DNA from: Takakia lepidozioides
Lineage: Eukaryota; Plantae; Bryophyta
Direction of reading: 5' to 3'
NCBI GenBank assembly: GCA_030704615.1
Contig: CM060731.1
Coordinates: 86,242,001-86,306,000, forward strand
Length of the DNA: 64,000 nucleotides
This document shows positions 20,295 through 47,165 of this stretch, piece after piece. The position numbers and the translations under genes were made by a program. Numbering within the stretch: position 1 is the stretch's first letter; every line of letters begins with the position of its first letter. The notes under the pieces are model-generated. The model was not told where the DNA came from. It made no database searches and worked only from the letters and a program-made list of their open reading frames with translations.

Positions 20295-20334
<40 letters not shown>

Positions 20335-21780
20335 GGGTGTCTATTGGGTGGTGGTGTGTTGGGAGAATTGGGGGGTTGGGGTGGTGGCGTTTTGGGGGGT
20401 TGCGGCCTTGGTGGATGTTGGTAACCGGGAATTGGAGAGTGGGCTTGGAGAGTGGCATTGAGGATATTGTCTGAGAAGAATGGGAATTTTTGGCTCATGT
20501 CACGGAGGTCGTGAGTAGGGTCGGAGAGGTGGTCGCCTAAGATTTTATGGGCATGTCCGGGAGTTGATTGGAGGAGTTGAAGTGATTCGTGTAGCTCGGA
20601 TAGGTAGTGAGGGGTGCTATATAGTTGTGGGGATGTGCTGGGAGTTGTTGAAGTTTGTGTAGAAGTGTTTGGACTTGTGAGTCCGTGTGGGTCCTGAAGT
20701 AGTCATCACATATTGTGGGTAGTGGGGAGATGGTAATAATTAAGGAGAATAAAATGTGTAGCGGTGGGTATTGGGTAAGTTGTCAAACCGCTTGTGTGAG
20801 GGCGGGGTAGTCACATGTGGGGAGGCCAAATGTGGAGCTATTGGGTATTTAGTTGTGGGTTGGACGGAGGATGAGGTGATAGCGGGCAAAAAGTGGTTGT
20901 ATAAGTGTTGATAGGCTGGTTTGAGTGAGACAGTGTTGGGTTGAAAGTATAGCGCATATTTATCTTGGGGGTCGGTAGGGAGGTCATTAATATTGTTGAT
21001 GGTATTTGGGGCGGGGTTTGGATGGATGTCACCACATCTCATAAGTATGAGTAGTGCGCATGTTAGAGTGAATTTGGTGTGGTGTGATGGGGGGTGATGG
21101 AGGGAGTGCTTGGATGCCAGGATTGTAGTTGATACCGACCATGAGGGCAGTGTGTTAGGAGGTAGCTTTGGGAGTGTGTGTTTATGTAGTTAGGAGTGTC
21201 AGGAGAATGTATAGGGGGTTTATCGGGGCTTGGTAAATCTGTATGGATGGTAACGCTTATAATCGTGGAACTGGTGGCGGCAAGGTGCGATGGTGCACGG
21301 AAGGGTATTGTGTCTGTGGTTAAGGAGTTAAAGTGTGTTTGGTATGTAGGAGTGGGATCCTGGTGGGTGAGGCAGGTGCGCAGGCAGTGGGTGATAAGGG
21401 GGAGGGGTGGCTGGGTTGGATAAAGAATTGCGGGGGTATGAGTGTGTGGGGGCTGGGGTGAAAAGTGTGAGGAGTGGAGCCGGATGGATGAGAATCCGTT
21501 GGGGATATTGTCATGGATGAATGAGAGTGTGGGTGCACGGATGAGGTATCGGTTATGGGTGGCGGGGGGGCAATAGGGGGAGATTGAATTGATTTGGGTG
21601 GGGTTCGTGACAGGGGGCGGGTGCAGACACGTGGAGGGGGCGGTGGGACGTAGCAGTCGGGGTACGATCGTGTGGGAGTGTCGAGAGTGGCTGTAGATGC
21701 ATATATTGGTACACTTTTCTTTTCAGATCGTTTTTGATCATAAGACAAGCGGTTTCGGCATTGTATTGCCAAAACATGTT
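19400..21780 (-). pseudogene. Degenerate LINE with APE endonuclease domain; RT not present
   Basis: ORF 19676-20458 has ITTWNVGSL, ILLQETK, RGGIA, LIHLYMP, ILADDFN (EEP/APE motifs); frameshifted continuation to ~19420; strongly C/A-rich coding strand. Confidence 0.85.
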
Positions 21781-23069
21781 AGTTTGTTAGTTGTCTGGAA
21801 ATCATTGGTAAAGCATGTAGGAAATTAGATAGTGTCTGCGATGACCATGGAGTGGAACTCTGGCGTCAAGATGACCGTAGGAAGCTGCATCGATAGCAGA
21901 TTAGGCTGCCAATTCGGTACCAGAAACGGCAAGTTAATCCTGTTCAAACAATACAAGACGACTGTTCCAGTCCCAGATTGCGATCTCTATTTTCTCCCGC
22001 CTTTCAAGTCTAGTAGGAACACATGGCGAGGAGCTTGGCAATTGGTGGAAGCGACATGTACAGCGATAAAATATCGCAACAAAGCAATTGGCCGCATCGG
22101 AATGACAGCAGGTCAGGACGACTTTCAAACGGCAAAGCGTGGACTTGTTAGCGGTGCGGGACAACTGGAGGGGACTCCGGACAACCTATGACTCAGTGGC
22201 AGGGTCAAAGACCCAAGAGCCATCACCAGGGATTTGATTTCCAAAAATACCACAAAATCTGTGTGTAGCGAAAATACGACGAATGGCGAGAAGTGCAACT
22301 TTTTACCACCGATGGAGCTGAGAATTTACAGGCTGATACAAGGTATATAATTGTAGTTTTTCACCAAGTTTGGTAATTTATGGAGCTGATTAGCAGCAGG
22401 GCCAGATTATTGAGTCGACGGCACTCACGGGGCCTATTATTTGCATTTCTACTTCTTGGATGGATGAAAAATCCTGGAATTCGCCTTGAGGAGCTGTATG
22501 GATGAAATGAAAACTCGCGCCAACTGGTCATCTAATTGGATGGATGAAAAGACAGCTTTCATTTGCCTCTAAGACTTTTCATCCATGTTGAATATTATAT
22601 TATATATCTTCCAAGGAAACAATAGTTTAATGAATATTTTCCATTAGTTTATTAGGCTCAAAAACAGTATAAAAGAAGGGCAAGGCTTCTCTTGTTCTTC
22701 ATCTAGTTCTTCTCTTGCTTAGTTTCCTCTTGTTGTAGTGTTGTTAGTTTGAGGCTTGAGGAGGCTAGATCCTAGGGAGTGGAGCTTGAAGCTCCCTAGT
22801 TAGGTAAAATTCTTGTGAGTTAAGGCAAGTGGCCTAGCTTGTGGGCCTTTGAGCCATTTCATTTATGAAGGAAGAGGGCCATTTCATGTAGAGGAAAGTG
22901 ACTTGAGGACGAGTAGGAGGGGCTGGTGTGGACTTATGGACGAGAGCCCAAGTGGAGGCCGCATAGAGTACCATTACTTGAGTCGATAGAGCATCCCAAG
23001 CACTCTCGCATTGAAAGGTTGATCCTATCTTACCATTCACCATTTATGTATGTGATTCATTTATTTATA

Positions 23070-25364: not shown

Positions 25365-27966
25365 CTCCCTCCCTCCATGGATCTGGCTGGTTCATTTAAA
25401 ACTTGATAGTTTAAGACCAGTGGTATGTTACCTAACCCCTAATTAACCTTCTTGAGATTTTTCATCCATATTGGATGATTTCTGGTTACTTTGTGGATGG
25501 ATTTCGCTGATGGGTAATTAACTATGTGAATAAGTTCATCCATAAAGGATGAACTTTCTACTTTGCGGATGAAATCATCAGTCGGTTGATCTACCTTTGG
25601 CAGAATTCATCCATACTGGATGTATTTTTTGGATGAAATCCGTTACTAGGTGTTTAACCACTTACTTCTGTTTAGCCGCACCGGATGAATTTCTTTACTT
25701 GACGGATGATGTCATTTACTTATGGCAGAATTCATCCAGACCGGATGAATTTCTATTTTTTGGATGAAATCCTTTGCTGGAAAATTAACCATCCGCCTTA
25801 GTTCATCCATACCGGATGAACTTTTTACTTCTTGGATGAAGGCAACAGATGGTGGATTTTTCATTTATCAAAATTCATCCATACCGGATGATTTACTTGT
25901 AGGATGAAGTTCGAGTTTGGTTAATTTCGGTTATTTACATTACCCGGATTTGTGGTATAAGGTCGTGATGTTTTTATCCTAATGAAGCCATCTTATTGAA
26001 GCCATCGCATGGATGAAATCGCGGGAAATTGCACTTCATCTCTTCCTTGCCCTAACCCTCTGCACGACGATCGTGCTTAAGGGATGGCGGGAGGTGAGAG
26101 ATGGTGGCGGGGGGCGCATGGAGCTCGATTCAGGCGCCCTTGAATGCTATGGAGCTGCTAAGGCCTTTAGGTGTTCTGGCAAGATTCAGTACCTTCTTCC
26201 CCTCTTGGGGTGCGCAATGACGGCAGTACCTGCAATTTCCCTGTGGCGGTTGTCTCTAATGCTTGGCGGGTGATCTACCTATGTTGTGGTTGCTTGTTGT
26301 GACCTTTATTGATCGTTAAGATACAAGCGGCACATCTTAAGGCCTCAGGGAAGTGTCTGAACTCTTTAAGTTTGGGCGATTCACTTTCTTTGTGCATGCT
26401 TTGTACTTCTTGTTCTGCATTATTGTTTGCACGTCTTGAGAGCTATGGCGTAGGCCTCTCTTCCACAAGCCATCAAGGTATTGGCTTGCATATGCTATGT
26501 TTCCTTTCTGCCCCTGCTTTGTAATGCATGTTGTACAGCGATAACAAGCGTGAGACCTGTGATTCACCTGGGGTTCCACATCGTCTCTAACTTAACTGTT
26601 TTTTATTGCATGTGATGGGACTAACATGGATTTTAAAGCTTGAAGTTGATTGGAATCGAGTTGAAGAAGTGACGCCATCTGTATCTTTGGGGGAGAACAA
26701 TCCTTTCTTCCTCTTTCCTTTGATCTTGATGGCTCCTATGTTTAACTTAGTATGGTGGACAATCAATCATTAGGGTGACTATCTCTTGTTCCCTGTGGCA
26801 TACGGATGTGACAATGGAGCAATGATATGACAAGCTGATGGCTTTAAAGAGATCTGGTAACATGCTACAATGTAGGGCAGACATGTTTTCATGACCAGAC
26901 AGTGTTCTTGAATGTACAAGCATTGGACACTTAGCCTCTTTTAGAAGCTGGCTACTTTAGGACACTTGATGCCATGCCAAACTGATATGGATGGATCTTT
27001 TGTGGCCAAATCTGGTCCTTGGTTATATGCCCTTGAATGTTTACCTATTTTCCAAAATGGTAAGACATTGGTAGATGTGAAGAGAATGATCCAGGCCTTG
27101 TATTCAAGTTGCTTTAGGATAAATGATACCAAAATAACCTGCAGGCCTGATGGGATGAGCAATTCAGATTCTTTGTGTTTCCTATGGATGATTGCCTGGC
27201 ATGTAAATCTGATTACAGCCTGTTATGGTAATGATTTCCCTACCCTAGACATAGAACTTGGTCTTGGGGAATGGAATAAGATTGGGGAATATTACTCTAC
27301 CCTGTCATTGAACTTACACACCAGCCCTAGATCTAAACAGATCATGGGGCAAAAAACTTGGTGTCAATAAGTGACTTGATGTGCAAAATAGGGCAGCTGA
27401 TTATACCCTATTGTATAAGCTGCCAAATATCAGTCTGTAATCCTACTTTGGTGATGTTCTTTATGCAAAGAAATGCTCTTATTTTGTTCTTAAGCCTTCT
27501 ATGTGATCATAAATGGCTTCTTTAAGACAAACAGACATTCCCAGCCATGAACAGTGATCAATGGTTCTTTATTTGGACATGGATACTTACTGCTCAGTCA
27601 TTTTGGTATGGAATGATACAAAGAACCCAAAACTATACTAGTTTTTGGGCCAACAATAAATTAGGATGGTTGGTTATGCCTTGGTATGTAAGCTGACCAA
27701 AAAATACATACTGAATGACATGGCATGTCATGAATGGCACTTTTTAGCATGTTGAACAAAGGTTTCCTGCTATGAACAGTGGTAATTGAGTCTCTAATTT
27801 TCCCCACCCCCCACCCAGAGATTTCATTGACTTTGAAGTCTGGGATTTGTCATAAAGCTGACTTGTGAATGAAGAATGGTTGATAATGCCTTGTTATGAG
27901 GCTGATTTTGTCGTTAATTTTACAATGACCTTGTCATGTCTTTGTCCATGTCTCGACAAGACATAA
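25365..27966 (+). repeat. Left arm of ~2.6-kb inverted repeat pair; outer part rich in TTCATCC/GGATGAA
   Basis: Reverse-complement similarity to 28341-29195 and 43096-44720, e.g. CCTCCATGGATCTGGCTGG, GCACGACGATCGTGCTTAAGGG, GACTTGTGAATGAAGAATGGTTGATAATGCCTTG. Confidence 0.88.
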
Positions 27967-29195
27967 TTTTTTTCCCTCATCTCTCCCTCTGTCCCATCAG
28001 GATGTGAAGAGAGAGGGAGAGAGAGGGAGGCAGCTGCAGTCCCCCCCACCTTCATTTTTCATTTTTTTTTCCCACATCTCTCTCCCTCTCTTTTCCCTCA
28101 TCTCTCCCTCTATCCCATCAGGATGTGGAGAGAGAGGAGAGATGAGGGAAAAAAAAAAAAAAAAAAGGTGGGGGGGGGGGGGGTGACTGAGCAGCACCTG
28201 CTTAGTCACTCCCCCCACACATTTTATTTTTATTTTTATTTTTTTTTTTCCTCATCTCTCTCCTTCTCTCCCTCTCTCCCTCTCTCCATCTGTCCCTCTC
28301 TCTCCCTCTGTCCCATCAGGATGTGGAGAGAGAGAAGATCTTATGTCTTGTCAGGACACAGACAAGACTTGACTAGGTTAATGCCAGATTAATGACAAAT
28401 CAGCCTCATAACAAGGCATTATCAACCATTCTTCATTCACAAGTCAGCTTTATGACAAACCCCAGACTTCAAAGTCAATAAAATCTCTGGGTGGGGGGGT
28501 GGGAAAATTTAGAGACTCATTTACCATTGTTCATAGAAGGAAACACTTGTTCAGCATGCTAAAAAATGCCATTCATGATGTTGCAGTCTGTATTTTTTTG
28601 GCCAGCTTACACACTAGGCATAACCAACCATCATATTTTATTGTTGGCCCAAAACCTGGTTTAGTTTTGGGTTCTTTGTATCATTTCATACTAAGGTGAC
28701 TGAGCAGCAAGTATCCATGTCCAAATAAGGAACCATTGATCATTGTTCATAGCTAGAAATGTCTGTTCAGCTTAAAGAAGCTATTTATGATCACATAGAA
28801 GGCTTAAGAACAAAGTAGAAGCATTTATTTGCATAAAAAACATCACCAAAGGAAGGTTACAGACCATTTTTTGGCAGCTTATACACCTGGGTATAACCAG
28901 CTGCCCTATTTTACACATCAGGTCAAGTTCTGACATCATGTTTTTTTTGCCCCATGATCTGTTTTAGATCTGGGGCTGGTGTGTAAATGCAATGACAGGG
29001 CAGAAAAGTGTTCCCACATCCTATTTCATGCCCCAAGACCAAGTTCTATGTGTGGGGCAGGGATATCATTACCATAACAGGCTGTAATCAGATTTACATG
29101 CCATGCAATCATTCATAAAAAAACACAGAGGGTCTGAATTGCTCATTCCATCAGGCCAGCAGGCTGCCTTGGTATCATTTATCCTGAAGCAACCT

Positions 29196-29621
29196 TGTCA
29201 TGCGCATACACCTCGCTACACAACTACATCGTTGTCCAACCACACAACATATACATACACACAAATCAGTTTGCCACAATGATTAATAAAAACTAGCCAC
29301 CATCACTCATGCATTACGAGTCAAGCCAAGCATACCCCAAAAACTATGGGAAATCTGCACTACGCGCGCCATAGCCGACGCGGGAGGCTCAACTCGAGAG
29401 AGATGAGCCTCCCGTGAAGATAAGCCACGCCCAAGGGCCAACAAATATCTTGACCCCTGGGTTGACACTTGGATCAAGCCCAAGTGTCATATATAAAAAC
29501 TAGTTATTTATTGGCTAGTTTCACACTACTAGTAAACTTTACTTGACAGCTGTCATGCGCATACACCTCGCTACACAACTACATCGCTGTCCAAACCATA
29601 CACACAAATCAGTCTGCCACA
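29196..29621 (-). repeat. 3' terminal Y-X-Y repeat block with junction palindrome TGACAGCTGTCA (29544-29555)
   Basis: TGTCATGCGCATACACCTCGCTACACAACTACATCG occurs at 29196 and 29551; the intervening 269 bp matches 42828-43095 apart from roughly ten differences. Confidence 0.95.
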
Positions 29622-29625
29622 ATTG

Positions 29626-29632
29626 CCCCCCT
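29626..29632 (-). promoter_or_regulatory. Polypurine tract AGGGGGG just upstream of the inner Y repeat
   Basis: Minus strand reads TAGGGGGGCAAT-TGTGGC, the usual PPT-then-TG arrangement. Confidence 0.65.
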
Positions 29633-29882
29633 AGCTGGTGGTTAGGTCCCTCTAACTCCAGATAGCTACAAGAGGTAATAGCCACAGCCTCACTAAGTCC
29701 TCTATCACTATCCCTATTGTACTCAAACTCTATAGACCAAGAGGCCGGGTATAAGAGTAGCCCCATCGTTATTCGCCGTCTTGCAATCTGTGAACTTGAG
29801 CCAGAGATCTCGTGTATTGGTCCCATAGTAGCTTGGCCTTGTGGTTCTTGTTAGTCTCACGTGGTTGTATCCATTGCTACTA

Positions 29883-30530
29883 TTAAATGCAGCGTGGACA
29901 CAACCAATCCCCATCAGGAACCATATCAAGAGGTGGCGTCAAGCATCCCATGTGCCAACCTCTTGAGCATCAATCGCACACCAGCATGGTGGCTGCCCCT
30001 CTGGCAGACCCACACAACATGCACCGCAACGTATCACGATGTTGTGCAATGACAAGGTTCTCGAAAGCCATGGGCATGACTTTCTTGAACAACTCTGCAC
30101 GCTGATCACATGCACGTGCCCACACGTCCGGATCGTCAAGGTTGAGAACTGTAGCAGCTTCTCTATGAATGGATGCAGGCAAATCTGGCTCTCGGCCAAA
30201 GAGAAGAAAGTATGGTGGGAAGGAGGCAAGTGATGCTTGTTTGCTGAGCCTATAGCCCATGGCTAACCAAGGTAACTGAAGGTCCCAATCTCCTAGGTGT
30301 CCCTTCTGCAAGCCATACTTGCGCAAACCCTTCTTCACTGTCTGAACAACCCTCTCTACCAAGCCATTGGCCTCAGGATGATCCCGAGAAGTGGTGCGGT
30401 GGTCTACCAAGGCCTTGTCACACAACGCCTGAAACTCCCCCAAGAACTCTCTCCCTTGGTTCGTGAGTATCTCAGTTGGAGCACCGAATCAGCTAAGTAC
30501 ACAATCCAAGAATGCATACGCAGCTCCCTC
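29883..30530 (-). pseudogene. C-terminal part of DDE integrase (rve) fused to PHD finger
   Basis: FGAPTEILTNQGREF...HPEANGLVERVVQTVK...PYFLLFGREP, then CMLC...LVCD*CSRGWHMGCLTPPL...WLCPRC (C4HC3); internal TGA stops fit CGA deamination. Confidence 0.92.
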
Positions 30531-30929
30531 TCCTCCAGTGACTATGGGTCCAATATCAGGCTCCCAGTTGTCCTCTGTGACTGCAACCTTGAGTCCAGCA
30601 GGCCTAGAGGTAGAAGACGCGTCCCGTGGTTGCTATGCTGCAACCTCTTGAGTAGTGATTACTACCTGCTCTGCCAATGATAATGCATCATCCTGCCCCA
30701 TCATCTCATTCTTGAGGACCTCCTCAACCCGAGAAAAATCCCCAACCTCATCCATCACTACCGCCTTGGCTGCCAACTCCCTCTGAACCTCGAGCATCTC
30801 CCACGTGTGCCATAGATACGGCCTGCACGTCGTGGTCCTCACCTGTTTGCCCCCACTCGCTGCCCGTACCGTCTCGGTAGGCAGAGAGACCATCAAGGGA
30901 AGTGTACTCCGTACTCTGTGCTGCTCAGC

Positions 30930-31915
30930 CATAGCCAAGCTGATAATCCAGGTCAAGCAATTGAGATCCATTGCTTGCCCCAACACCTGACGACGTGATG
31001 CCTCAGAAAGAGATGGCAGCGCCGTGGTACCAGTGGTAAAACCCATCGCCCACTCGCGCTCGTCAACATTGGGCTCCACTAACTGCTGCAACTGGCTATC
31101 CCACAAGAGGCCAGGTCCACCATCCCAGAAAGCATGAGATCCTGGAAAGCTGAGCAGTGTAGGCAATGCTGCTTGTGGGTGACCTACCTTATTGACCACT
31201 GCCAAAGGTGACCGGTCATCGTGTCTCACACGATGAGACTGCCTCCCTATGTCCAAAATGCTATCCACCGTGAGGTTTGGTGGCCGCTGCACCCCATCAA
31301 ATGCACGCTTGAGCAGTGCAGGTGGCATCAAGTTGGTCCACCATAGTTGTGGGCGATGAGCCCATGACCCCACTGTAGCTGCATCCAGCAACACTGCTAA
31401 CCCAAGCCAAGACCGCTCCCGATGCACATTGGCCATCACCTTGGCCCGAGAATCACCCATCAATGGCACATTCTCCAAGATATATGCCGGAGAGTCTGTC
31501 TGCTGAAACTGTAAATAGCGCAGGATCCTCAACATCTCCCAAAACGGGCGTGACCTTGAGTCTTGTAACCCATTGCCATGCCCGGCTGATGAATGCCCTT
31601 GGCAGGGCCAACTTGCCACTACCAAGTGAATAGGGCCAACCCGCTCCAAATCATGCGCCCCCAGCAAAGAGATGTCTGCTGGCAAGGCTTGTTGGTATCC
31701 ACGAACTGCAGACACTGGCAACAAATCAGGGTACTGCTGCACCAACTGAGCAACATGGCACAGTGAGATGCGTCGTGCAGTCTCATCCCTCTCTACATAC
31801 ATGTAACATCAAACTCGTACACATGCCTGCAGCACTGCAGCACTGCAGCACTGCAGCCAATCCATTGTTGATCCCGTCAAACAAGTCCAGAAGGCATATG
31901 CCTTCATCCGGGCAC
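30930..31915 (-). pseudogene. DNMT3-like C5-cytosine DNA methyltransferase domain within the polyprotein
   Basis: Motif I LLDLFDGI (alternative frame, 31870-31893), II YVERD, IV SWPCQGHS, VI YILENV, VIII AHRPQLWWTNL, IX EREWAMGF, X RRQVLGQAMD, in canonical order. Confidence 0.9.
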
Positions 31916-32267
31916 TGCCACACAGAGTGTGGGTGTCCAATGGCAACAACTGAGGTGGTCCTAGTGCAATCACCGCACTTTCCTCCTCTCCTGATAGTAC
32001 AAAGGCCTCTACCCAGGCTTGTTGCACCCGTCTATCAGTCTGCTGCAAATCCTTGCTCGTATCCCACAATGGAGTGTGAGCAACCATGGCAGGCAACTCC
32101 GCCGTACCATGCATGTCATCCTGATCTGCTGGAGGTGGCACATCCTCTGCATGGGCATTGCCCTCCAGTAACTCTCCAGGCCAACTAACTGCAGCTGTGA
32201 AGGTTGCTAGTGTTGGCATCTTGCCCCGCTGGGCAGTAGCAACACCCCCAATGAACGTCATAGGGAG

Positions 32268-33053
32268 CTATACACGACGACCATCCCCTGACTGCCATCC
32301 AGGCCTGTAGGATGCTGACTCCTCCCAAAAATCCAGGGTGAAGCCCATGGGATACAACACTGCCCCACGAACGAGGACATCGTAAGAGACCGCGTCTGTC
32401 ACAATGGCCTTGGCTCGCATCACTGAGCCATCTATAAGATGATCCAGCTGTAGTCTAATGGCCAACTCATGCCGTGTCATGCCCCGAGTCTGCTCTGATC
32501 CTCCCAGAGATGTCTGTATCTGGAAAGGACAAGGCTCCATATCCGCCTCCATGAGGCCCAAACCTGCAATAGCAGCTCTGCCCAACATCAGTGGCTGAGC
32601 TCCCGAGTCCAACAAGACCCGCAGTGGCCGGTATCTCTTGCCTGCCGGTCCACTCAAAGAGAAAATGTCATCCTGGTTGTCTAACAAGACAACTTCAGGT
32701 GTCACCATGGCGCGCTCAAAGGCTGGCCTAGCTGGCAGCTCTGTCAACCTGACAGCTGCAGCTTGCCATGGCGCAGCCGTGGCAGTCTTGACCCTCAAAT
32801 CCGAGAATCCCTCTGCCACTACACCTTCCACTAACTCCGCAAAAGATGAAGTGACCTCCCCACTCTCACAGAGTGTTGTTGCTAGTCTGAACACTGCAGC
32901 CGGTCTTACCCCTAGCGTCGCAATCATGGTTGCCGAGAACAGTGGGGCTTGACACACAGAGGTGGCCGCCCCCAACAACACATTGGCTGCACTAGCCTTG
33001 GCAGCAGGTGTCAGAGCTGCACGTGTAGTTCTCCCCAATGGCACAATAACGGC
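32268..33053 (-). pseudogene. Retroviral-type aspartic protease region
   Basis: RVLLDSGAQPLMLG active-site motif and YDVL..G; the frame joins 38452-38694 once CACTA 2 is removed (...DTEVEA|VIVPLGRTT...). Confidence 0.88.
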
Positions 33054-36000
33054 CACTAGAAGAATAACCACTGGCCCCCGTAACCACTCTTGTCTTTTAT
33101 CACTCTATAAATCACTCCAAGTAATGGTAACCACTGGTCAGTGGTTAATTCCGATAAAATGCCACGGTGGCATCATATGGAGTGGTTGGAAGTGGTTTCA
33201 ACCACTGAGTAATCCACGTGTAATATTTAATTTTATATTTATTATTTGACATTTGGTCAAATATTTATATTAATAATGATAACATCCGACATGGACGGGT
33301 GCAGTGATAAATTATGAGTGGTTAAAGACACCTCAGTGATGGGAAGTGGTTGAAACCACTTTCTACTCCACGTGTAATATTTTTTTTTAGATTTTTATCA
33401 TTTCAAAATATATTATTCCACGTGGACGAGGATAGTATGCGTAGATCATGAGTGGTTAAAGACCCCCCAGTGATTGGTACCACTTGCACAGTGGTGGAAT
33501 GTGAGTGGTTAAGACCCTTTTGTAACTGGAACCACTCTACAAGTGGGCACTTGTGAGTGGTTACATACACGTGTTGGTACCACTTCTGTGGTGGTTTGTG
33601 AGTGGTTGAAGACACCTGAGTGACGGGGGTGATTGAAACCACTTGCTACTCCACGTGTAATAATTCAATTTTTATTTAAGATTTATCATTTCAAAATATA
33701 TTTTAATTATGAACTATATTATTCCACGTGGACGGGGACAGTATACGTAGATCTGGAGTGGTTAAAGGCCCCCATTAATGGGTACCACTTTGAGAGTGGT
33801 GTAGAGTGAGTGGTTACAGACCATTTAGTAACTGGAACCACTCGACCAGTGGTTACGCGTGAGTGATTACATACACACCAGTGATTGGTATTACTTCTGT
33901 GGTGATACATGAAAAACTTTAGTGGTTTGTGTGTTGATGGAAAACCCAAAATCCATCTATCTATCGCTACATTCATCCATCCAGTCATGAGTGAGGGGAC
34001 TTAGCGTTTTTTTTGTCTTCCCTGCCACTGTGGCATCTGTTTGTTTTCTTTGTGTTGTAGTGTGAATGCAGGGGAATGACATTGAAATTTGTGTTGTTAC
34101 TCACTGAGATTCTGCATTTCTACAAAGGAAGGGCCCTGGTACGAAAATAGGTTGAGTTGTCCCTGCAATTTATTCCATACATGTTTCTAGGTTAAATCAT
34201 GGGAACAATGGGGAACTCTTGGCCAGGATGAAAATGCTCTCAAGTACCTGCGATTTATTTCATCCACCAGATGGACGGATTTCATCCCTGATTTTCCAGA
34301 TTACTCTATGAGCGCGATGAAAGTCCGTGGCCTGGATGAAAGTCGATCAAACTCATCATCTACCTATTTTTATCCTGACGATGAACGGACTTCATCCCTG
34401 CAGGAAGTATGATGGCGGGGAAGCCCTACGGGTGCTGTGGGAAGTAGAATGGTGTGGTGTGTGCAACAGGGAGCTTGGCGCACGTGCATTGAGGTATATC
34501 GATTGAGGAGCATGGTGTGGCATGAGGTGTGGCTGACAGAGGAGGAGCAATGCTTGGAAGGGTGTGCAACTGCGATTACAGGGAAGCGGTGCCGTCTTTT
34601 GATGATCTATTTTTGAAAGATCAACTCACGAGGGAAGGACTTGCTTTGAAGAAAGGGAGTGTTGCAGGACGATTCATTAAGGGCAAGGGAGGCTTGATGC
34701 CATGTGCTACTGACACAAGGGATGGAGGCTTAGAGGCGGTGCCACCTTTGATTTAATCTCTGAAGGTGTGGGAGTTGCGGGGAAAGCAGCTCGGCGTCAT
34801 GGTGCAGCTACCAACGGAGGGGCAGCAGTACCGCCGTTGCTTTCATGACCACAATCGCAGGAGGATGGGCTTCAAGGCAGGCAGCTTGGCATCCTGTGCA
34901 ACCGCCAGATGAGGGGAACAGATCCGTTGTGTGTTTATGTTTCCTTCTTGCCAATTTCTGACGGTTGAGCTTACGGTAGAGGAACAAAGTTGGTAAATAA
35001 GTTGGTAAATGACTCGGATCACCTGTAGATAGGGTTAATGAAGGATGCATGTACAGAGTAGAGAAATATCTGAGATGCGGACTAGCTTTTGTGTTAGCAT
35101 GTGTTTTGCTTTAGGGTAGGTTGGCAGGAATGCTGGCAGATGAACACCCTGTGATTTTCCAATGATGACATCTGTAGGGAAGAAGAACCCTGGCATATAT
35201 GATGATCTGTTCACTAAAGAGACCCAATAACAATTTAGATAACCTCAGCCCTGTCCATGTCTTCTCTTCCGCTGCGACATGGATAAGGGTATAAAGTCTC
35301 TGGTCATAAATAGATTTAGAATGAATTAAGTAGGGTCTGAGTCATTTTAGAAAGAGCAAGTAGGTTGATGTCATAGGGCAGGGCCATGGATCACTGCTCA
35401 AGAAACAGTTAACTATAGTTTACCAGAAGGGTTTCATGCCCCTACTGCAGTGTGGCTTTTCCTTAATGTAGGATGTGAAGAAGTTTGTCCATCCTGCAAA
35501 TGTGGGCTTTTGGCTCCTGTTAGTACGGTATTCTTCCTGATGTTTACAAGGCAGCCCGCTGATTCATTTCCTGATTCAACCTATTTCAGCCTATTTTGCC
35601 CTCTTATCAGACTCGGGCCTGATATGCATATTGAAATCTGTAAGTTAGCTCGTTGGTGCAAGAGAGAGAGAGTCAGCTTGGTCTTAGCAGGCCATGCCAT
35701 GTTCAAAGCTGGAATTGTACCTAATGTCATTCTGAACATTGCCTGGCAGCTCTGGAAAAGGGGAAAGAGGTCGACATATTTGCAAAATGAAAGCCTTGCT
35801 TGGTGCCTGCAAAATCCATGGCAATGTGGAGATGGCTGAACGTGCGGCATGAAGGTACCTTCTTCAACACATTTCACCCTGTTTTTCCCTATTACCAGAG
35901 TAGTCCCTAAATTTTCATGTAGAATTCTGCAAGTTAGCTTGTTTGTGATGTGAGGTTGCATGAATTTTATACCGATCCTTCACGGTGGTGGGACAACCGC

Positions 36001-38451
36001 AATCACCAAGTGTGGCTTTTCTTAATGTACGATGTGAAGAAGTTCGACCATCTTGCAAAGGTGGGCTCTTCGTACGTGTGAGTACCATGATTTGGTATTC
36101 CTCCTAATGTTTACAAGGTTCTTGGGAGAGTCAGCTTGCAGGTCTTAGCAGGCCGTGTTTCAATCTCTGCTTGCTCAGCTGCACCGTGGTGGTTCTCACA
36201 GACCAATCCAACATTACCTGACTACAGACAAACATCACGCACAAGAGGTCATTTTGGGTTGATGGTCGGTCAAATCCTCCATGGGTCAAGGACAATGTGG
36301 TGAGGGCACGTTTCAGCCTGTTTTGCCCTCTCATCAGACTTGGCCCTGAGATGCATGTTGAATTCTGCATGGGTGATAAGTAGGGTTGGGTGTTTGCTGG
36401 AACAATTGTAGGCTGTCATTGTCAGCCGCTAGCAGCAAGGGAAGGATGTATGCATGATTTGTGCAGAGCTTGGATAGCTGAGGGAGCAGGGGTAGAGTCG
36501 GGCCGGTCCAGATTCATCCAAGAGGGCGGGACTTCAAGCTCACGATTACCTATAATTCCCTGTGGATCAATAGCTGCAAGAAACCTGCATGGGTAGATGG
36601 TCAACTGGAAGCCGCAGCAGCAACGACACAATTGATAAAATGAAGCACTGCTAATGAAGGCACCTTCTTCAACACACTTTTATCCTGTTTTTCCCTCTTA
36701 TCAGAATTGACCCTAAATTTTCATGTTGAATTTTGCAAGTTAACTGGTTGAGTGAACCTTTGATAGTTTGGAGTGACTTTGACATGGTACTGCCAATGTG
36801 ACAACATGGAAATATCCAGTTCTAAACAGATAACAGCTGAGACGAGGAGAAGCTGTGGAATGAATACTTTTTCTGACCCCAGTCAATGGTGCGACAATCG
36901 AGGCAAAAAGGTGAAATGCCTGTTGGATTACAGAGAGTAGCAGATGCAATTGACCATAGTGATAAGTTGAGTTGGGTGTTCCCTAGAACAAATCTAGGCT
37001 GTCATTGTCAGCTGTTAGCAGCAAGGCAAGGATGTATGCATGATTTGTGCGGCGGCATGGATAGCTGAAGGAGTAGGGATAGAGTCTGGGTCCAGATTCA
37101 TCCAAGAAGGCCAGACTTCAAGCTCCAAATTACCTATGATTCCATGTGGATCAACAGCTACAAGTCAACTAAAGGTAGCAGCTGCAGTGGCACAGTTGAT
37201 AAAATCAGGCACCTCAACCATGACCGCAGCTTCTGAAAGAGGATCAAGAGAGGCCAGATGTCATTATGAACATTCCCCTGGTGTACATCTACATCAAATG
37301 TGAGCTTGGCAGCCCTGGCCAGAGAAGAACATGAAGAGGGCTTACAATTTCGTTCACTCGGGCGTAGACGTTGCGCAATGAGAAGAAGGTAGGAAAGCAG
37401 TTCAGTGTTCCTAGCATGCATGCGGAGACGTTGTGTAGAAGTTAGGCTCAGACTTTTATCATGGCTGGATTTTGTTGACAGTGTTCCAGCACTTACTCTC
37501 AGGGATTTTATCTTATTTTGTAGAGCTTGAATCCCCAATGATATTTCTTTCGCTACAATAGTGGTATGTGTTCATCTAGTCATGTTCCTAGTCACTTGCA
37601 CGCCAATGTAATAGTGGTATAATTTAAAACTGTAAGAGTAGCCAAATACACACAATTGCCTCCATTACCACTCCTGTAGTGGAAGACGTAATCACCTATA
37701 TATTACTGTATTAGTGGTATGAATTCCTCCAGTGATATTCTTAATCACTTACACACCACTCTGTTAGTAATCATTCCAATCCATAGGTCCCACTCAGAGA
37801 GACACCATGGATGATTCAAACAGCTTACATACCACCTATGTGGGTAATCATTCCAATGACCTGCTAAGAGACGTCATCCACTCACATAACCACGGTTTGA
37901 GTGATATTGTATATTCTCAGTTTTCATAGAATGACTCTGTGAGTCATTTCGCGATCACTCAACAAGTGGTTTCGGAAGTCATTGAATTTTTCACTCCATC
38001 CATTTTGTAGCACCGACACATGACACGTGTCCATGCTGAGAGTGTCGCCACATGTCAACATAATATCCAATATCATCCACGGACCACCGACTTCCACGTG
38101 TCCACTAGAAAACGGAAGTGGTTACTTTATTACTATGACACGTCAATTTACCACTGTGACACATCAGAAGTGGTTGGTTTACCTCAGTGACACATCATTG
38201 ACACGTCACATTGGTGAGTTTACACGTCACAGTGGTTAATTTACCACTGTGACATGTCAGCGAACAGGTGGACCCGGACGTGAGTGGTTCGAACCACTGT
38301 CCTTAACCACTAATGCCACGTAATGTCTTTTACCACTCACTTGTCCTAATCCACTGGTTCTTCATCACTCTAGGGCCAGAGTGGTTTAGTGTCTTTTACC
38401 ACTCAAAATGAGTGGTTAACAGAGTGGTTATTCTGCGTTTTTCTTCTAGTA
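33054..38451. mobile_element. Non-autonomous CACTA element 2 inserted in the retroelement polyprotein
   Basis: Left CACTAGAAGAATAACCACT; right ...GGTTATTCTGCGTTTTTCTTCTAGTA (terminal G>A); TSD GGC (33051-33053, 38452-38454); dense AACCACT/AGTGGTT subterminal repeats. Confidence 0.93.
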
Positions 38452-38454
38452 GGC

Positions 38455-40244
38455 CTCTACTTCGGTATCCGTCAGGCGAGAACTAGGTGCCATGGATGTC
38501 GTCGACACTATCTCTGCCAAGATGAATGATTGAGGCAACCTAGCCTGACGGCTTGCCTCCCCACGCTGTGGATCCAACTCCACCTCTGCACCTCGGGGCT
38601 CAGGAACTCGTGCTGCTCTTTGAGTGATGGCTGCAGCAGACTCCACCTGCACTAGTGGTAGTGCTGCCCTACACATAAATCCCATGTCTCCCATGTCTCC
38701 TCCGTCAGGATGACGTTGCTAAGGAGGAACAGGAGGTGGACCCTCATGTCTTGGAGCTGGTACCACCTGAGCTGTGGCCATGGCAGCAAGCCTTTGCTCT
38801 AGCTGCTGAAGCTGGTTGGCCATGTCTTGGTCAACGCCCTGACCTCCACGTCCTTGGCCATATTGTGCTTGCCCTCGTCCTCTCTGAGGTGCTCCACCTC
38901 GCCCTCGGCCATCATTGTTCCCTTGGAACTGGCCTCGCCGCAACTCAAGGTGCAAGTCATAACACTGGGCATCTACATGCCCATACTTGCCACAATGCCC
39001 ACACTGCAACTGTGCAGGCTGTGCTTGTGCCGACCCTTTGCTACTCTCTGGGCAATCTTTCTTGACATGGGATCCTCCACATGTCCAACATACCACCCTT
39101 GGTTGCTGTTGGCCTGCAAAAGAAGCTATTGGCCTCTGCACCTGAGGTCCCCAGTAAGCTCCATGGAATTTGGGTTGGGCAGCCTTGCCCCCCTGACCAC
39201 ACTGTTGGGCAGTCCCTTGTGCCTGTTGGCTGGCAGCTGCGCCTCGTGCAAGCATGTCCTTGCCAAATCCAATGGTAACAACTCGCTCCTCCACCATGTT
39301 GAGCTAAATCCGCTCAGCTAGCAGAAACACATCTGCTAATGTGGGTTGGGCCGCTTGTAACAGGGTTGCATCCCGCATCTTTCTCCTGATCTCCTTGTCC
39401 AAAATTCCATACCAGAACTGGACTGCCCGAGCTTCAATAACCCCTTGGATCATACTTATCAAGCGCCTCATACGAGTGTAGGCTCTCGCAAGCTCTCACT
39501 GGATTTGCGTTGGAAGTCTTGCAAACTTCGCAGCTTCTCTGTCCATACGCCTTAGTAGTTCCTCCGCAACTCCTGGAAGAACTCCACCGCCGGGTTGAAT
39601 CTAGGCACATGTGTTGTAGTCGTGGCAGGAGGAGTAGTAGCACCTTTAGAACTGGTACCACCTGCAGAAGTACCGACACTACTTGTTCCACTACTAGTGC
39701 TGGCAGTGGGAGATATTGGTGCTGATGCAGCTACTGGTCGTGTCGTGCATCAAGTAATGGAGATGTAGTCAGGTGACCAATACATCCTCCACTCCTCAAT
39801 CTCTGCTTCATGTCCTCGCCTGAACTTGTGGTAATCGTCCATACGCGGGCCTTCCAAATGTTGGAACAGTCCCTTCCACGCCATGAATGGGGTGAATAGC
39901 TATGGATTGCGCATCTGCCGTAAATCACACCAGCTGTCGAACTCCTGGATAAAGTCATCTAGCTCGATTGTGCCCACAGCTCCAGAGTACCTACGAGGCC
40001 CCTTGGTAGCTCCATACTTCTCCTCCATATCGTCCCACAACAATGGCGAAGGAAACTGCACACTTGTTGATGAAGCCTCCGAGTCTGTGTCAGACTCTGC
40101 ACTGGTTGAGGGTGGAGGTGAAGGTGGTCTGAACCGAACACCGCGTCTTGTGAACCCACTCTCACTGCTACTGCCTGTAGCCAAACTCCCCTCAAAACCC
40201 TTGGGTAACTCCGTGATGACACTCACAACCCACACCTCCCCCAC
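38455..40244 (-). pseudogene. Gag with two zinc knuckles
   Basis: YSGAVGTIELDDFIQEFDSWC, LRSLQDFQRKSSESLRE, knuckles CWTCGGSHVKKDC and CGHCGKYGHVDAQC, GRG-rich tail; several stops and frameshifts. Confidence 0.85.
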
Positions 40245-42813
40245 GTGACACTATAAGGCTCTAGTACTAATTCTAATAGTGACACGGGTGGGCACCTGTT
40301 GTGGTTTAAGGGTTATATCCCAGTGGCTAAGAACACCGCAAGAACTCTTATGGTTGGCTGGTCATCAACCTAGCCTCACCATAGAAGAAATACTGGTGGT
40401 CTTGCTGGTCATCACTCCAGCCTCACCACCGACAGCATACTCTAGGATTGACCGATGATCAAATCCGGCCTAATCCCGATGAAAGCAAACGCCCACACAA
40501 AACCAACATGGCGCACAGTCAAGCATGCAGGTGTGGGGGGGATCCAAACACAAGAAACCAAAACATCAACACCCCCACACCAAATTCCCTCCGTAGTGCT
40601 GCTCTTGCACAATATCCCACAGCCCAAAAACCTGGATTGACTCTTGCCTCCACCTATGTAAAGTCTTTGGCCTACCGAGAGGGCGGAAAGCTATGGGAAA
40701 GAGAGACTAAAGCAATTCCTAACCCCAGCATGCCCTCATCCCGACACTCTTTATTTCCTCTCTAGCCATACACTAATGTCAAAAAGTGACAGGTGTGTTA
40801 CAAACAGACAGCTAAGTGATCATCCCTGACTTGAAACAACTTCTTCAATAGACCTCAAATAGATGTGGGGAGGATCTAATTTACATTAGAAAAATTCTAT
40901 AGATTTTTGGTCAAGTCCATTTTCTGGTCTAGGTAGACGCATTTCCACATTCTGTAGGTCCCTGCGCAAGTTTTGGGTCAAACGGCCTTGGTATGCCCAA
41001 ACATGCTCTATGTAATTTAAATTAGATCAAAGAACGAATTTCTTTAATTTTTCACACCCAAAACATTCTCGACATTAAAAGCTGCTCCCAGGTTATCTAC
41101 GGGTTCCCCTGAGGAACCCGAGTTCCTGCAGGTTCCCCTTGTTCATTGTGAATTTTTCAAATACTGCATAGCGGCTCCCCAGTCAATCTTGCTATCTCCA
41201 TTTGCGATTATACCCGTTCCACTATGAGGGCCTGGAAGATTCATGAGCATAGGCCTTAGAGTAAACAAAACACCACAAACTTTCGACACTGCCTTCAGAC
41301 GCTCAACCAAGAGCATATACGAGAGTGGCTGCCATCTTACATGGGCAATAGCATGAAGCATGGCCCACGGACCTGCAGCTCTTGAGTCTTCAAAATGAAG
41401 TAGGCGGCTCCTTAATAGCGTCACTGCAATGCAAATAGGCAGACAACACAAGGTCCCCGCAAGACAAGCTGGTTCTTGCACGAAGCGATTAGGAGGTGAT
41501 GTATGAGCAGCCCTTTATCACATTTCTCCTCCACCGCAGCAAGGTCTTACCTGCATACAGGTACTTCTTGGTTGACTAGGTTAATGGCCTGATCCGTGCA
41601 TGCTCGATCTCAGCTGACACAAGGAAGCCAGGTTCACCACACCTTCCAGCACCTTCATTCGTTAATCCGTGCTCTGAAATTGCTACATTCAGCAATCTAA
41701 ACACAATCGTTCAGTTCAGCTTTTGTCCGAGTTGGCTTTTCATTTCACCACCACGATCTGATCACTCCGTCCGTCCTGTCAACATTCCTTAATTTACATA
41801 TCGATTTTGCTTGTTCTACTGTCAAGCTCCAGGAAATAATTTGCCAAGCTCGTGGCTTTCCCACCAATTGTTCCTCCAAGACCAAGAAGATCATACGTCA
41901 CCGTTGCAGCCACTTGACAGACCACCTTCTTGCTACATTCATGCCCGCATAAACGAAAATGATCACCTGGCAATGTAACTATGTAGCTTATTACTTAGTT
42001 ACTGTCGAACTTATGACGGCCAGCCAGCCAAAGCAACGAGCTCCCCCCTACTCTGATGTGCCGAGGATCTTCACCTAATCCTCCTTTACACTCCCAGGGC
42101 AAGACAAGATGGGCTAGTCCATGGCCTGGCTCCCTCCGCTTCTATTAATGCATGCCTTCCTGCGGCCACCTAACCACCAATGATTAATTTGATGGTCTGT
42201 CAAGCTCTGGCTTTACCGGCGGCTTTCTTGAAGGGATAAACAAGCTCCTTGTTTACGGGCAAACAGTGGCTCACTTTGCGAAATTTTTGTCCAGTCTAAA
42301 CTAGTCTACTTTCATTTATATCTTTTTTCATAGGAACTTTAAATTAGGTGTTTCAATTTATTTTTGTTGTCAACTCAATTTGAGATCACCCAAAAATTGG
42401 TTTCCAAACAAAGCTGTTGTGATTTGAAGATGAAAAATGAGAGTAAGATTAGAGTAGACTGGACAAAAGTGAGCCACTGTAGCATGCTTCTGCCCTTACA
42501 CCTCCCTTCACAAGCTGGCCTCGGCAGCCTAGCAAATGTTGGTTATTCTCCGACTACCCCAACAACTATTCATTTGTTATTGGCTCCTTCAAGCAGGTTC
42601 CGGGCACTTCAATCCAGTTGCACCATGGCTCCCTTGCGATAACCCCTTCCATGCGTACCTTTGCTGGAGCCATTGTCATCTCTCAAACTATAGACTTGGA
42701 TCTTTTCATACTAGGACCAGCTCTCTCAGTCTATGATCATGTTTTAGCACTACAAACAAAAACAAAACAACAGTGCTAAAACTCTCACTCACATCCTGCA
42801 CTAAAGACATGAG

Positions 42814-42954
42814 TCATCTCTCTCGAGTGATTAATAAAAACTAGCCACCATCACTCATGCATTACGAGTCAAGCCAAGCACACCCCAAAAACTATGGGGA
42901 ATCTGCACTACGCGCGCCATAGCCGACGCGGGAGGCTCAACTCGAGAGAGATGA
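42814..42954 (-). promoter_or_regulatory. Putative self-priming primer-binding site abutting the 5' repeat
   Basis: TCATCTCTCTCGAG (42814-42827) lies directly next to repeat X and is the exact reverse complement of CTCGAGAGAGATGA (42941-42954) inside X; no TGG-type tRNA PBS. Confidence 0.7.
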
Positions 42955-45900
42955 GCTCACCGTGAAGATAAGCCACGCCTAGGGGCCAACAAATATCTTG
43001 ATCCGTGGGTTGACACTTGGATCAAGCCCAAGTGTCATATATAAAAACAGTTATTTATTGGCTAGTTTCACACTACTAGTAAACTTTACTTGACAACCTG
43101 AATACAGGGCCTGAATCAGTTTCTTCATAACCAACAATGGCTTACCACCATGGACTTTGTCCATTAAAAAAGCTAAGCAACCAAGGGCATCTAACCATGG
43201 ACCATATTGGGCCAAAGAAGAGCCAGCCATATCAATTTCGCATGGCACCAGATGTCCAAAAGCAGCCAACTCCTAAAAGAGGCCAAGTTTACAAAGCTTT
43301 ACAATAAAGAACACTATTTGGTCAAAAAACAAAGTTGCCCTACGTTGTAGCTTGGTACCAGATATCTTAAAGCCGCCAGTTTGTCACATAATTATTCCAT
43401 TGTCACAATAAGATGCCACAGGGAACAAGAAAGAAACACCCTAATGACTGAGTGTCCACCATACCAGGTTAAGAACAAGAGCCAGTAAGATCAAGGGAAA
43501 GAGGAAGAAATGATTATTCTCCCCCAAAGATACAGATGTCATGGCGTCGCATCTTCAGCTCGATTCCAATCAACTTCAAGCTTTAAAATTCATATTAAGT
43601 GAGGACCCTCATCTGGTCCCATCACATGCAGTAAAAAACAGTCAAGTTAGAAAAGATGTGGAACCCCAGGTGAATCATAGGTCTCACGCTTGTAGAAGCC
43701 TGCGCCATAGCTCCCAAGACCAGCAAACAACAATACACAAAATAATGGATTGCCCAAGCATTTTAACAAGTTTAGTCACTTCCCTGAGGTCTTAGGATGC
43801 GCCGCAGTATCTTAATGATCAATGAAGGGCACAACAAGCATTCACAGCCTAGGTATCTACCCGCCATCATGATAGACAACCGCCACATGGAAATTGAAGG
43901 CACTACCGCCATTGTGCACCCCAAGAGGGGAAGAAGGTACTGGAATCTTGCCAGAATACCTGCAGGCCTTAATTACGCAGCTCCATAGCAATAAATGGCA
44001 CCTAAATCGGGCTCAATGCACACTCCACCACCATCTCTCAGCTCCAGCAACCCCTTAAGCACGATCGTCGTGCAGAAAGTTAGGGCAGGGAGGAAATGAA
44101 GTGCAATTTCCCGCGATTTCATCTGCACAAGATGAAATCCACCAACGAACGGTTGAAAAATCCCGATTTTTCATCCCTGTGTCATCCACCAGGGATGACA
44201 TCCAGATAGGGATGAAAATCATTTGGCATTCATTAGGATAGAAACCTCATGACCTTATAAACAAAAAATCGGGTAGGGTAAATAACCGAAATTAACCAGA
44301 TTCGGACTTCATCCGTAAGGTAAAAAATCATCCGATATGGATGAATTCTGTTAAAGGTAAATCCACCATCTGATGACTTCATCCGAAAAGTTAAAAGTTC
44401 ATCCGGTACGGATGAACTGATATAGATGGTTAAACACCCAAAAACGGACTTCATCCAAAAAATGAAAGTTCATCCATTATGGATGAACTCTGCCAAAGGT
44501 GAATCAACCAACTAATGACTTCATCCAAAAGTAAAACATTCATCCGGTATGGATGAACTGATACAGATAATCAATCACCCAGCAACGAACTTCATCCGAA
44601 AAAGTAAAGAAATCATCCGGTATGGATGAAATATCAAGAAGGTTAATTAGGGATTAAGTAACATACCTCTGGGTTTAAACCATCAGGTTTTAAAAGAACC
44701 AGCCAGATCCATGGAGGGAGCACTAGAAGAAAAACGCGGAATAACCACTGGCCCTTTAACCACTATTGTTTTTTCCTACTCTATAAACCACTAGTAACCA
44801 CTTGTTAGTGGTTAATCCCGATGAAATGCCACGGTGGCATACAGACAGTGGTTGGAAGTGGTTTCAACCACTCAGTAGTCCACGTGTAATAATTTGTTTT
44901 TATTTATTATTTATTATTTGGTAAATATTTTAGTTAATAAATAAAATATTCCACGTGGACGGGTGCAGTGCTATATTGTGAGTGGTTATAGACACCTCAG
45001 TGATGGGAAGTGGTTGAAACCACTTGCTACTCTACGTGTAATAATTCAAATTTTATTTATGATTTATGATTTGAAAATCTATTTTAATTAATTAATACAA
45101 TATTCCACGTGGACGGGGTCAGTGCATGTTGATCTTGAGTGGTTAAAGACACCTCATTGATTTGTACCACTTTGACAGTGGTAAAGAGTGGGTGGTGAAA
45201 GACACTGCAGTAATTGGAACCACTATTCTAGTGGTCACTCATGAGTGGTTGCCTACACAACAGTGATTGGTACCACTTTTGTGGTGATACATGAAAAACT
45301 TTAAGTGGTTTGTGCACCTGTGACAGACTTTGAAAAACGGAAAGTGTCCAGACCATTGTAGGATGATGCTATTGAACAAATGGTTCCAACAATAAACTTT
45401 ATTCTAGCCTGGTCTTCAGTCTCTCATATTAGTTCTAGAATGTTATGTGGTTAAAGGCACCTCAGTGATTAGTATCACTTGGACGGTGGTAGATTGTGAG
45501 TGGTTAAAGACACCTCAGTGACTGGTACCACTCTTGTGGTGATATATGAAAATGTTTAAGTGGTTTGTGCACCTGTGGCAGACTTTTAAAAACATACAAG
45601 TGTCCAAATCATTGTAGGATGATGTTATTGAATAGATGGTTCCAAACAATCAACTTTATTTTGAATCTAAATCACAATATTAATTCTCTGAAGCACTTTC
45701 CTCAACTCGAACAATGTTTGGTCATACGAAACTAGCTTGAAATATGGTAGCCAACATAGCCAGCTCTTCTCCACTTAGAGCCGTGGCACCATCCAATGAC
45801 CTAGGTATGGGCTGATCTGATAAGGTAGAGGGTGCCCGTAGACCTCCAATGTCCAAACTTCAACGATGAATTTTAGAATGAAAATAAATTAAGCCAGTTC

Positions 45901-46889: not shown

Positions 46890-47165
46890 ATGAAGGGAAA
46901 GAAGTCCATGGTGACATCGTCAAGGCTGGAATAGTACCAGATGTCATTATGAACAATACCCTTGTTGATATGTATGCCAAATGTGGGAGCACTGTGGATG
47001 CAAATGAAGTGTTTGATGGGCAAACGAGATGTGATGTTCTGGAGTGCTATGATTGCAGGACATGCACAACATGGATATGGGGGATGGAGGCTTTGGAGAC
47101 CTGTGAGCAAATGCACATCAGCAGGGGGTGAAGCCAGACCGAGTCACATTCATTTCTGTTGTGCC
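46890..47165 (+). pseudogene. Captured PLS-class PPR gene fragment
   Basis: EGKEVHGDIVKAGIVPDVIMNNTLVDMYAKCGS.VDANEVFD, then RDVMFWSAMIAGHAQHGYG and MEALETCEQM...GVKPDRVTFISV across frameshifts. Confidence 0.88.

Follow-up and report, generated by a model that had tools for sequence, protein, structure and literature searches.

The locus examined here raises the question of how an LTR retrotransposon comes to carry, inside its own repeated sequence, a palindrome whose two halves are the ends of the integrated element. The window (64,000 nucleotides of Takakia lepidozioides contig CM060731.1) contains such an element, and the original prediction was that the palindrome is a candidate internal att site and the source of both ends. 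This prediction is supported by the ends of related copies, by target site duplications (TSDs) and by conservation across families. We consider it quite probable that the palindrome represents the joined element ends kept inside the LTR, which a DDE integrase would likely cut after CA on both strands.

The palindrome and the element ends

Positions 29544-29555 read TGACAGCTGTCA, a perfect 12-bp palindrome that cannot be extended. The left end of the element is TGTCA at 29196 and the right end is TGACA, with its last base at 43095; ACCT flanks both. Both ends match the halves of the palindrome at the Y/X junction, as had been predicted, and the spacer GC (29549-29550) is missing from each of them, which agrees with the second part of that observation. 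The features that define the element and its insertion are the following:

29196..43095, minus strand: dead Ty3/Gypsy-methyltransferase element, Y - internal - X - GC - Y - X, with nested insertions
29544..29555, no strand: internal att junction (T)GACA-GC-TGTC(A), with a conserved core at 29545-29554 and the spacer GC
29192..29195, plus strand: TSD ACCT, left copy, read from the sequence
43096..43099, plus strand: TSD ACCT, right copy, read from the sequence
27106..27109, minus strand: empty paralogous site in the inverted host repeat, with uninterrupted flanks and a single 4-mer ACTT

The element lies inside one arm of a large inverted host repeat (25369-28946 / 43094-44720). The arms are 78-85% identical and the repeat provides the empty site, where both flanks run through one ACTT; the insertion therefore duplicated 4 bp.

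Palindromy in itself is ordinary, as there are 26 perfect 12-mer palindromes in the window. The pattern GACA-NN-TGTC has three matches in the window against 0.94 expected; the other two (38022 and 49539) lie inside an unrelated repeat. What is not due to chance is the location of the palindrome, at the exact meeting point of repeats Y and X, and not its palindromy.

Repeat layout and coding content

Read along the minus strand, the order is Y, primer-binding site (PBS), gag-like region, nested insertions, protease, C5 methyltransferase, half an integrase, PHD finger, polypurine tract (PPT), X, GC, Y and X. The repeats and the coding remnants are as follows:

42828..43095, minus strand: repeat Y, 5' copy, starting TGTCA and ending AATCA at the PBS, from repeat comparison
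38719..40250, minus strand: broken gag-like frames with Cys/His knuckle-like motifs, read from the sequence
32268..33104, minus strand: aspartic protease region, weak Pfam matches, 37% identity to P0048
30633..31808, minus strand: C5 cytosine methyltransferase domain, PF00145, E 2.6e-08
30024..30530, minus strand: DDE integrase core, C-terminal half, the N-terminal part being deleted
29889..30026, minus strand: PHD finger remnant after the integrase, with one in-frame stop
29551..29622, minus strand: repeat X, internal copy, directly after the PPT; inferred first part of U3
29280..29548, minus strand: repeat Y, internal copy; inferred rest of U3, R and U5
29196..29279, minus strand: repeat X, terminal copy, forming the element 3' end and ending TGACA, from repeat comparison

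The Y copies (29280-29548 and 42828-43095) differ at nine of 268 positions, and the X copies (29551-29622 and 29196-29279) at three of 72 with an additional 12-nt indel. The window copy is dead, since RT, RNase H and the integrase N-terminus have been deleted and several frames are broken. No significant Pfam match was obtained for the gag-like frames at 38719..40250. Nested repeats (33062-33931, 35849-37212 and 37316-38450) separate gag from protease and have counterparts elsewhere in the window at 44739-45660, 12769-15605 and 48833-49904.

A search with the integrase fragment returned 60 proteins at E <= 1e-20 among 1084 candidates. The named ones are from Klebsormidium, liverworts and Sphagnum; many combine rve with PHD and two carry PF00145. 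The Klebsormidium nitens polyprotein P0048 has the same domain order as the window copy, with identities of 37% in the protease, 43% in the methyltransferase and 57% in the integrase. The Pol order PR-RT-RH-IN with rve is present in loci L020 and L028 and in P0040/P0048, as in Ty3/Gypsy elements, and the PBS after the 5' repeat and the PPT before the 3' LTR are likewise of Ty3/Gypsy type. As in KnitGypsy-Dnmt3, a C5 methyltransferase lies within the Gypsy Pol, before RT. There is a PHD finger after the integrase instead of the chromodomain of Tcn1 and Tf1/Sushi elements. The canonical LTR structure is absent, as the TSD bounds the start of Y and the end of X, not two full terminal LTRs; the repeats are instead split in the manner of DIRS (A..B-A-B).

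A stop codon between the methyltransferase and the RT part reads TAG followed by CAR-YYA in the window (30627-30635, minus strand) and at L020:5083, L021:502 and L074:4661. TAG-CAR-YYA is a leaky-stop context of plant viruses. It occurs in 4 of the 30 sequences examined, none of them from the L032 family, and in L020 a single stop of this kind parts two long in-frame ORFs. These sequences suggest that read-through may control the amounts of RT and integrase.

Priming sites and the junction of the cDNA ends

Four further features bear on reverse transcription:

42814..42827, minus strand: self-priming PBS, directly after the 5' Y
29393..29406 (also 42941-42954), minus strand: 14-nt stretch of Y complementary to the PBS; inferred RNA 5' end and self-primer
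29623..29632, minus strand: PPT, AGGGGGG-CAA, read from the sequence
29274..29284, minus strand: junction j, where Y (its U5/PBS-side end) meets X (its PPT-side start), the A at 29280 being common to both

The 14 nucleotides that follow the 5' Y complement Y positions 142-155. In other families, complementarity between PBS and Y extends to 8-10 of 10 nt in all ten L032-family 5' ends and to 19 of 20 nt in L020. Judged by sequence complementarity, the PBS is of the self-priming type. The PPT adjoins X, not Y. Standard LTR reverse transcription yields an LTR that spans from the PPT border to the PBS border. With the PBS at Y and the PPT at X, the LTR expected from reverse transcription is therefore X-GC-Y at both cDNA ends. 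The integrated element is this X-GC-Y LTR opened at the palindrome: the copies start and end there, not at the PBS and PPT borders.

A second junction, AATCA-T-TGTGG at 29274-29284, had been proposed as the joined cDNA ends with a spacer of 1 nt. Its position and the meeting of PBS-side and PPT-side ends were borne out, but the spacer was not; A-TTGTGG is found at the PPT side as well, which assigns the T to X and makes junction j a direct join. It is precise in 10 of 12 copies. The other two carry scars, one extra base in L034 and an 18-nt partly templated insert in L003, which look as end joining would leave them. It is less likely that integrase itself makes j from a CA at the end of U5, since Y terminates in CA in three families but no CA can be made out at j in the L075 and L068 types.

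X copies within one element differ by 0.071, against 0.091 between elements (20000 permutations, p 0.0006), and there is no column in which the majority differs between first and second X copies. It follows that the terminal X is re-templated every cycle. Re-templating of X and the pattern at j fit a cDNA with two full LTRs whose ends have been joined.

Ends of related loci

The ends of other copies were read from the best 80 of 528 relatives found in metagenome contigs. These comprise 24 full loci, 22 X-only loci, 24 loci without a usable right end and 10 special cases. The 24 full right ends (X-site-Y-j-X) represent 14 distinct insertions as judged by their flanks, 12 of them from one family, and the 22 right ends that follow a single X represent 19. 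The 14 full insertions, from three other repeat types, have the same layout as the element in the window. Left out of the end counts were L020, which is described below; L074 and L061, whose contigs contain no second X; L046/L052, in which Y is truncated; L054/L055, which have lost the site; L059, which carries a deletion; and the 24 loci without a usable right end. Among these best 80 of 528, each of the 33 distinct right ends is found at the GACA position, in some cases with changes from decay, and none stops at U5. None of 11 distinct left ends starts at X. The findings that would have spoken against the prediction, free variation of the palindrome or copy ends at other positions, were not encountered.

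Eight insertions have both ends: L014, L032 and L060 are full, and L001, L019, L028, L036 and L064 are of the Y-internal-X form. An exact 4-bp duplication of varied sequence is present in seven of the eight, and three of four letters agree in L001. TG..CA ends with a 4-bp TSD are found in the window and, exactly, in seven of eight loci; L064 starts with TC and the start of L014 is damaged.

One insertion, seen at L065:3361-3878 and L067:1412-1929, reads X-GC-Y-PBS and then carries the first 170 nt of Y inverted. It ends at the exact reverse complement of the first base of Y (GACA) and has no X there, so the right end tracks the half-site even without X. Judged from its sequence, this is a fold-back product primed by the copied self-primer. 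The short Y-internal-X copies, which are frequent, could result from cutting at both sites, from a one-LTR circle or from later recombination between two X copies; in the last case the X-only copies may have formed after insertion and not by direct insertion. The short and fold-back products indicate that the half-sites can come from different copies of the palindrome. The common rule is that the 5' LTR site supplies the left end and that a GACA half farther along supplies the right one.

The mirror product, Y-j-X-GC-Y-internal-X, is absent from the 11 distinct 5' ends (10 loci and the window), none of which has X-GC before the PBS-adjacent Y. The chance of this is ~0.002 if mirrors were as common as full copies (14/33), assuming equal persistence.

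Several single cases were also recorded. At L059:3300-3602 a deletion fuses the end of the integrase/PHD frame to approximately Y position 178, beside the predicted self-primer cut, with the terminal j-X present; this one case is either a mis-transfer of strong-stop DNA or a chance deletion. At L070:1805-1929 a GACA X end abuts, in inverted orientation, the interior of a Y-like sequence (77%), by autointegration or by insertion into another copy. At L020:8560-9317, X-GT-Y continues into the PBS and leader without a terminal overlap, which may represent a one-LTR circle, a tandem copy or an assembly collapse. A search for solo Y-j-X in the flanks of the loci gave one decayed candidate (L001:111-511) without a clear TSD, and no relative was found in the viral contigs searched.

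Conservation of the site

No indel is present at the site in any of 12 distinct full copies from the L032 family. Seven of its columns are invariant and every change is a transition; the 10-bp core is perfect in three of the 12. The spacer is GC in five, AC in six and AT in one, and its length is constant. G>A in the spacer (7/12) compares with 19/71 at other CWG sites (Fisher p 0.043). The GC spacer of the original prediction is therefore kept in length but not in its first letter, which is A in seven of 12 related copies. Within the family the site is no better conserved than the rest of the repeat, and the spacer letter looks tolerant. Elsewhere, the site has been lost by a small deletion in L054/L055, and GCT stands right after the end in L047 and L077.

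The window, L032, L075, L074 and L061 have a perfect GACA-GC-TGTC; decayed forms are present in L020 (spacer GT) and L068 (AC-TATC). In these seven representatives of six repeat types (that of the window and five further) the site lies 71-172 nt after the G-run of the PPT, and their integrases are 57-73% identical to that of the window. It is the only or best shared block in most pairings; window/L032 and L020/L074 also share part of X. The chance of such a site is ~0.003 per 200 nt. Conservation of the palindrome, which had been suggested as a check, was thus seen across repeat types but did not exceed that of the rest of the repeat within the L032 family; the signal lies across families, not within them.

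Host copies were read from contigs of four sequencing runs aligned to 29500-29600 (627 contigs in run X1), where summed depths are not copy numbers. Fifteen contigs of run X1 with unlike flanks (agreement 0.43) end exactly before 29551, as do two of run X5. One contig of run X5 departs after the GACA half, and one X5 contig has GCT directly past that half. Among the matches listed, the sole substitution in 29500-29600 is A>G at 29555 (147266/165339 depth, 61 contigs, run X1), and 29541-29554 shows no substitution among the matches listed (run X1, bridging pieces at least 8). The common host form of the half on the 29555 side is CGACA in the sense of the element. The perfect 12-bp palindrome of the window would accordingly be a subfamily trait, likely produced by CpG decay. 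As proposed, the site has the behaviour of an internal att site in the different copies and families, but its core is 10 bp (GACA-GC-TGTC) and not 12, most host contigs having G at 29555. The family is abundant in the host and common among the related loci.

Proposed mechanism

The reading given at the outset is the best explanation of the ends, the loss of the spacer, the 4-bp duplications, the positions of PBS and PPT and the cross-family conservation; the cutting itself is deduced from integrated copies. The element RNA would start within Y and self-prime at the PBS, which would give a linear cDNA with X-GC-Y at both ends. The U5 end would then be joined to the PPT-side start of X, forming j and a circle or a nicked circle-like intermediate; the joining agent could be host end-joining, an RT jump or integrase. 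Integrase would nick both strands at the 5' LTR site, leaving CA-3'OH ends with 2-nt 5' overhangs, and insertion with a 4-bp stagger would produce Y-internal-X-GC-Y-j-X and regenerate the template. New copies would begin with TGTC and end with GACA, the 2-bp spacer being lost. Nicks after CA on both strands give 3'-recessed CA ends with 2-nt 5' overhangs, the geometry of a processed retroviral end, and repair removes the overhang. Use of the site would differ between the two LTRs. The 5' LTR would always supply the left end; the right end would be taken at the first site (short Y-internal-X, presumably a dead end), at the site across j (full copies) or from a fold-back copy.

There is precedent for the predicted cleavage. 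Foamy virus integrase cleaves a palindromic LTR-LTR junction after CA on both strands (PMC1180852), and HIV-1 2-LTR circles can be linearised and integrated, their palindromic junction being cut after CA on both strands (PMC4372172). Transposases of the IS3, IS30, IS21 and IS256 families insert from abutted ends with a spacer (PMC3299598, PMC7780238). The open frames of L020 encode RT, RNase H, an rve integrase with D-D-E and a PHD finger. No tyrosine recombinase match was found in L020 (12 of 19 frames scanned) or L028 (26 of 33 frames scanned); given this and the DDE integrase of L020, a DIRS-type route is disfavoured. Marking of one of the two sites by the methyltransferase was also considered and found no support in these data.

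On a broader view, the evidence leans toward a widespread lineage of streptophyte Gypsy elements whose att site has shifted away from the cDNA tips and is now fixed as a palindrome in U3. Joined (circular) cDNA would be an obligatory precursor, and integration would occur only after end-joining and internal two-strand DDE cleavage at the 5' LTR site, in convergence with IS3-type junction insertion and split-repeat DIRS elements.

Alternative explanations

The ends might instead be made by reverse transcription: a second plus-strand start before the GC would set the left end, which integrase then trims by two bases, and run-on plus-strand synthesis would stall after GACA at the right. This accounts for a left end that always derives from the 5' LTR and for right ends of three kinds (at the first site, across j or by fold-back), and the left end would need nothing beyond canonical 3' processing. 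However, the G-rich PPT is conserved before X and not before GC in seven of seven representatives, the terminal X begins at the PPT border, and there is no purine-rich primer before GC. Additionally, for the polymerase to stop at the exact base in 33 of 33 right ends, a separate mechanism is required, most simply a site-bound integrase. We regard this explanation as rather unlikely.

In its literal form, the original prediction has a covalently closed two-LTR circle that is opened a single time, at one or the other of two identical palindromes. Such an opening accounts for the complete layout, for junction j, for the loss of GC and for the re-templating of X, and two-LTR circles have the foamy virus and HIV-1 precedents (PMC1180852, PMC4372172). 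Two equal sites, however, predict the mirror product as often as the full form, which is contradicted by its absence (0/11, P ~0.002), and a single opening does not yield the L065 fold-back end. Mirrors could have collapsed to Y-internal-X by recombination between Y copies, and such collapse would necessarily have been complete. The literal circle is improbable.

It is very doubtful that the layout is the fossil of one old aberrant integration in an element that is now DIRS/Ngaro-like, mobilised by a tyrosine recombinase in cis or trans, with the second X inherited separately. Split-direct-repeat tyrosine recombinase elements do have the A-internal-B-A-B layout (PMC5890265, legends of Fig. 1 and Fig. 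4), but varied 4-bp duplications, TG..CA ends and a DDE integrase speak against it, as do the lack of a recombinase match in 12 L020 and 26 L028 frames, a spacer that is lost rather than recombined, and X copies that are homogenised. A chance arrangement or artefact (two adjacent ordinary LTR elements, or a misassembly, with an accidental palindrome) is scarcely credible and is refuted at the level of layout: 12-bp palindromes are common and Y alone has LTR-like TG..CA ends, but the empty site and TSD enclose the whole unit, the layout recurs in the 14 insertions of other repeat types, and the repeats are 5-12% diverged, too far for assembler collapse.

Comparison with known systems

The repeat layout is already in print for KnitGypsy-Dnmt3 of K. 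nitens, in one legend line which states that the repeats are arranged as in DIRS and the domains are those of Gypsy (Fig. 4c legend, PMC5890265, de Mendoza et al. 2018). The resemblance, judged by pairwise identity, lies in the Gypsy Pol with a C5 methyltransferase and in the DIRS-like repeats of the legend. The element described here is from another host organism, and the published account, as far as it bears on KnitGypsy-Dnmt3, gives no att site, palindrome, TSD, PBS/PPT position or mechanism. KnitGypsy-Dnmt3 was without activity in yeast, a result that the authors call inconclusive (PMC5890265), and Gypsy-Dnmt3 is also named in bioRxiv 10.64898/2026.05.21.726589. The literature searched, outside subscription journals and Repbase, contained no description of an LTR retrotransposon with an internal att site. 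The feature is real and has good comparative support; it would represent a mechanistic variant of Ty3/Gypsy integration with a predicted cleavage.

Canonical Ty3/Gypsy elements, including Tcn1 and Tf1/Sushi, for which self-priming has been reported, share PR-RT-RH-IN, the PBS by the 5' repeat, the PPT, self-priming, TG..CA ends and a 4-bp TSD (PMC6317226). In contrast, the ends described here are not the cDNA ends set by PBS and PPT, there is no TSD-bounded pair of terminal direct repeats, the att site lies 71-172 nt inside U3, and PHD and methyltransferase domains are present, not a chromodomain. LTR finders that need paired terminal LTRs and a TSD (as in PMC6317226) would miss such elements or misplace their boundaries.

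Cleavage of the retroviral 2-LTR junction likewise involves a palindromic abutted att cut after CA on both strands by a DDE integrase, here a deduced step (PMC1180852, PMC4372172). In those retroviral reports the palindrome is made anew by ligation of cDNA ends and serves a side route, whereas here it is inherited within the LTR, is distinct from j and is used by every copy examined. Joined or circular cDNA as a precursor for retroviral integrase has been argued for decades and is at most a side route in retroviruses (PMC1180852, PMC4372172); here a natural family appears to depend on such cDNA. As the site is 10 bp long, its cut position is predicted and there are three natural kinds of product, the question can be put to a direct test with a single enzyme and oligonucleotide. 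For the delivery of circular DNA, an integrase able to open a defined internal site and insert the whole circle would also be of interest.

The IS3/IS2/IS911, IS30, IS21 and IS256 families also use DDE insertion from abutted ends with loss of a short spacer (PMC3299598, PMC7780238). Unlike the element described here, they are bacterial DNA transposons in which the transposase builds the junction, the spacer derives from the flank and there is no reverse transcription. In split-direct-repeat tyrosine recombinase elements a circular intermediate is inferred, and the ends meet at the B-A junction. Among these, PAT, Ngaro and SymbioDIRS have the A-internal-B-A-B layout (PMC5890265) and differ in using a tyrosine recombinase, where the present family has a DDE integrase, a TSD and spacer loss.

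Other features of the window

A tandem array of about nine 181-bp units lies at 47078-48824. Two 437-bp TG..CA repeats in opposite orientation (53438-53874 and 61762-62197) are 96% identical, and an integrase-plus-chromodomain-like frame (62214-64000) adjoins the right one. As this frame is just 26-27% identical to the integrase of the element family, the repeats are likely the LTR and a solo LTR of an ordinary chromovirus. Broken frames at 19378-21800 (minus strand), read from their translation, resemble a LINE endonuclease region.
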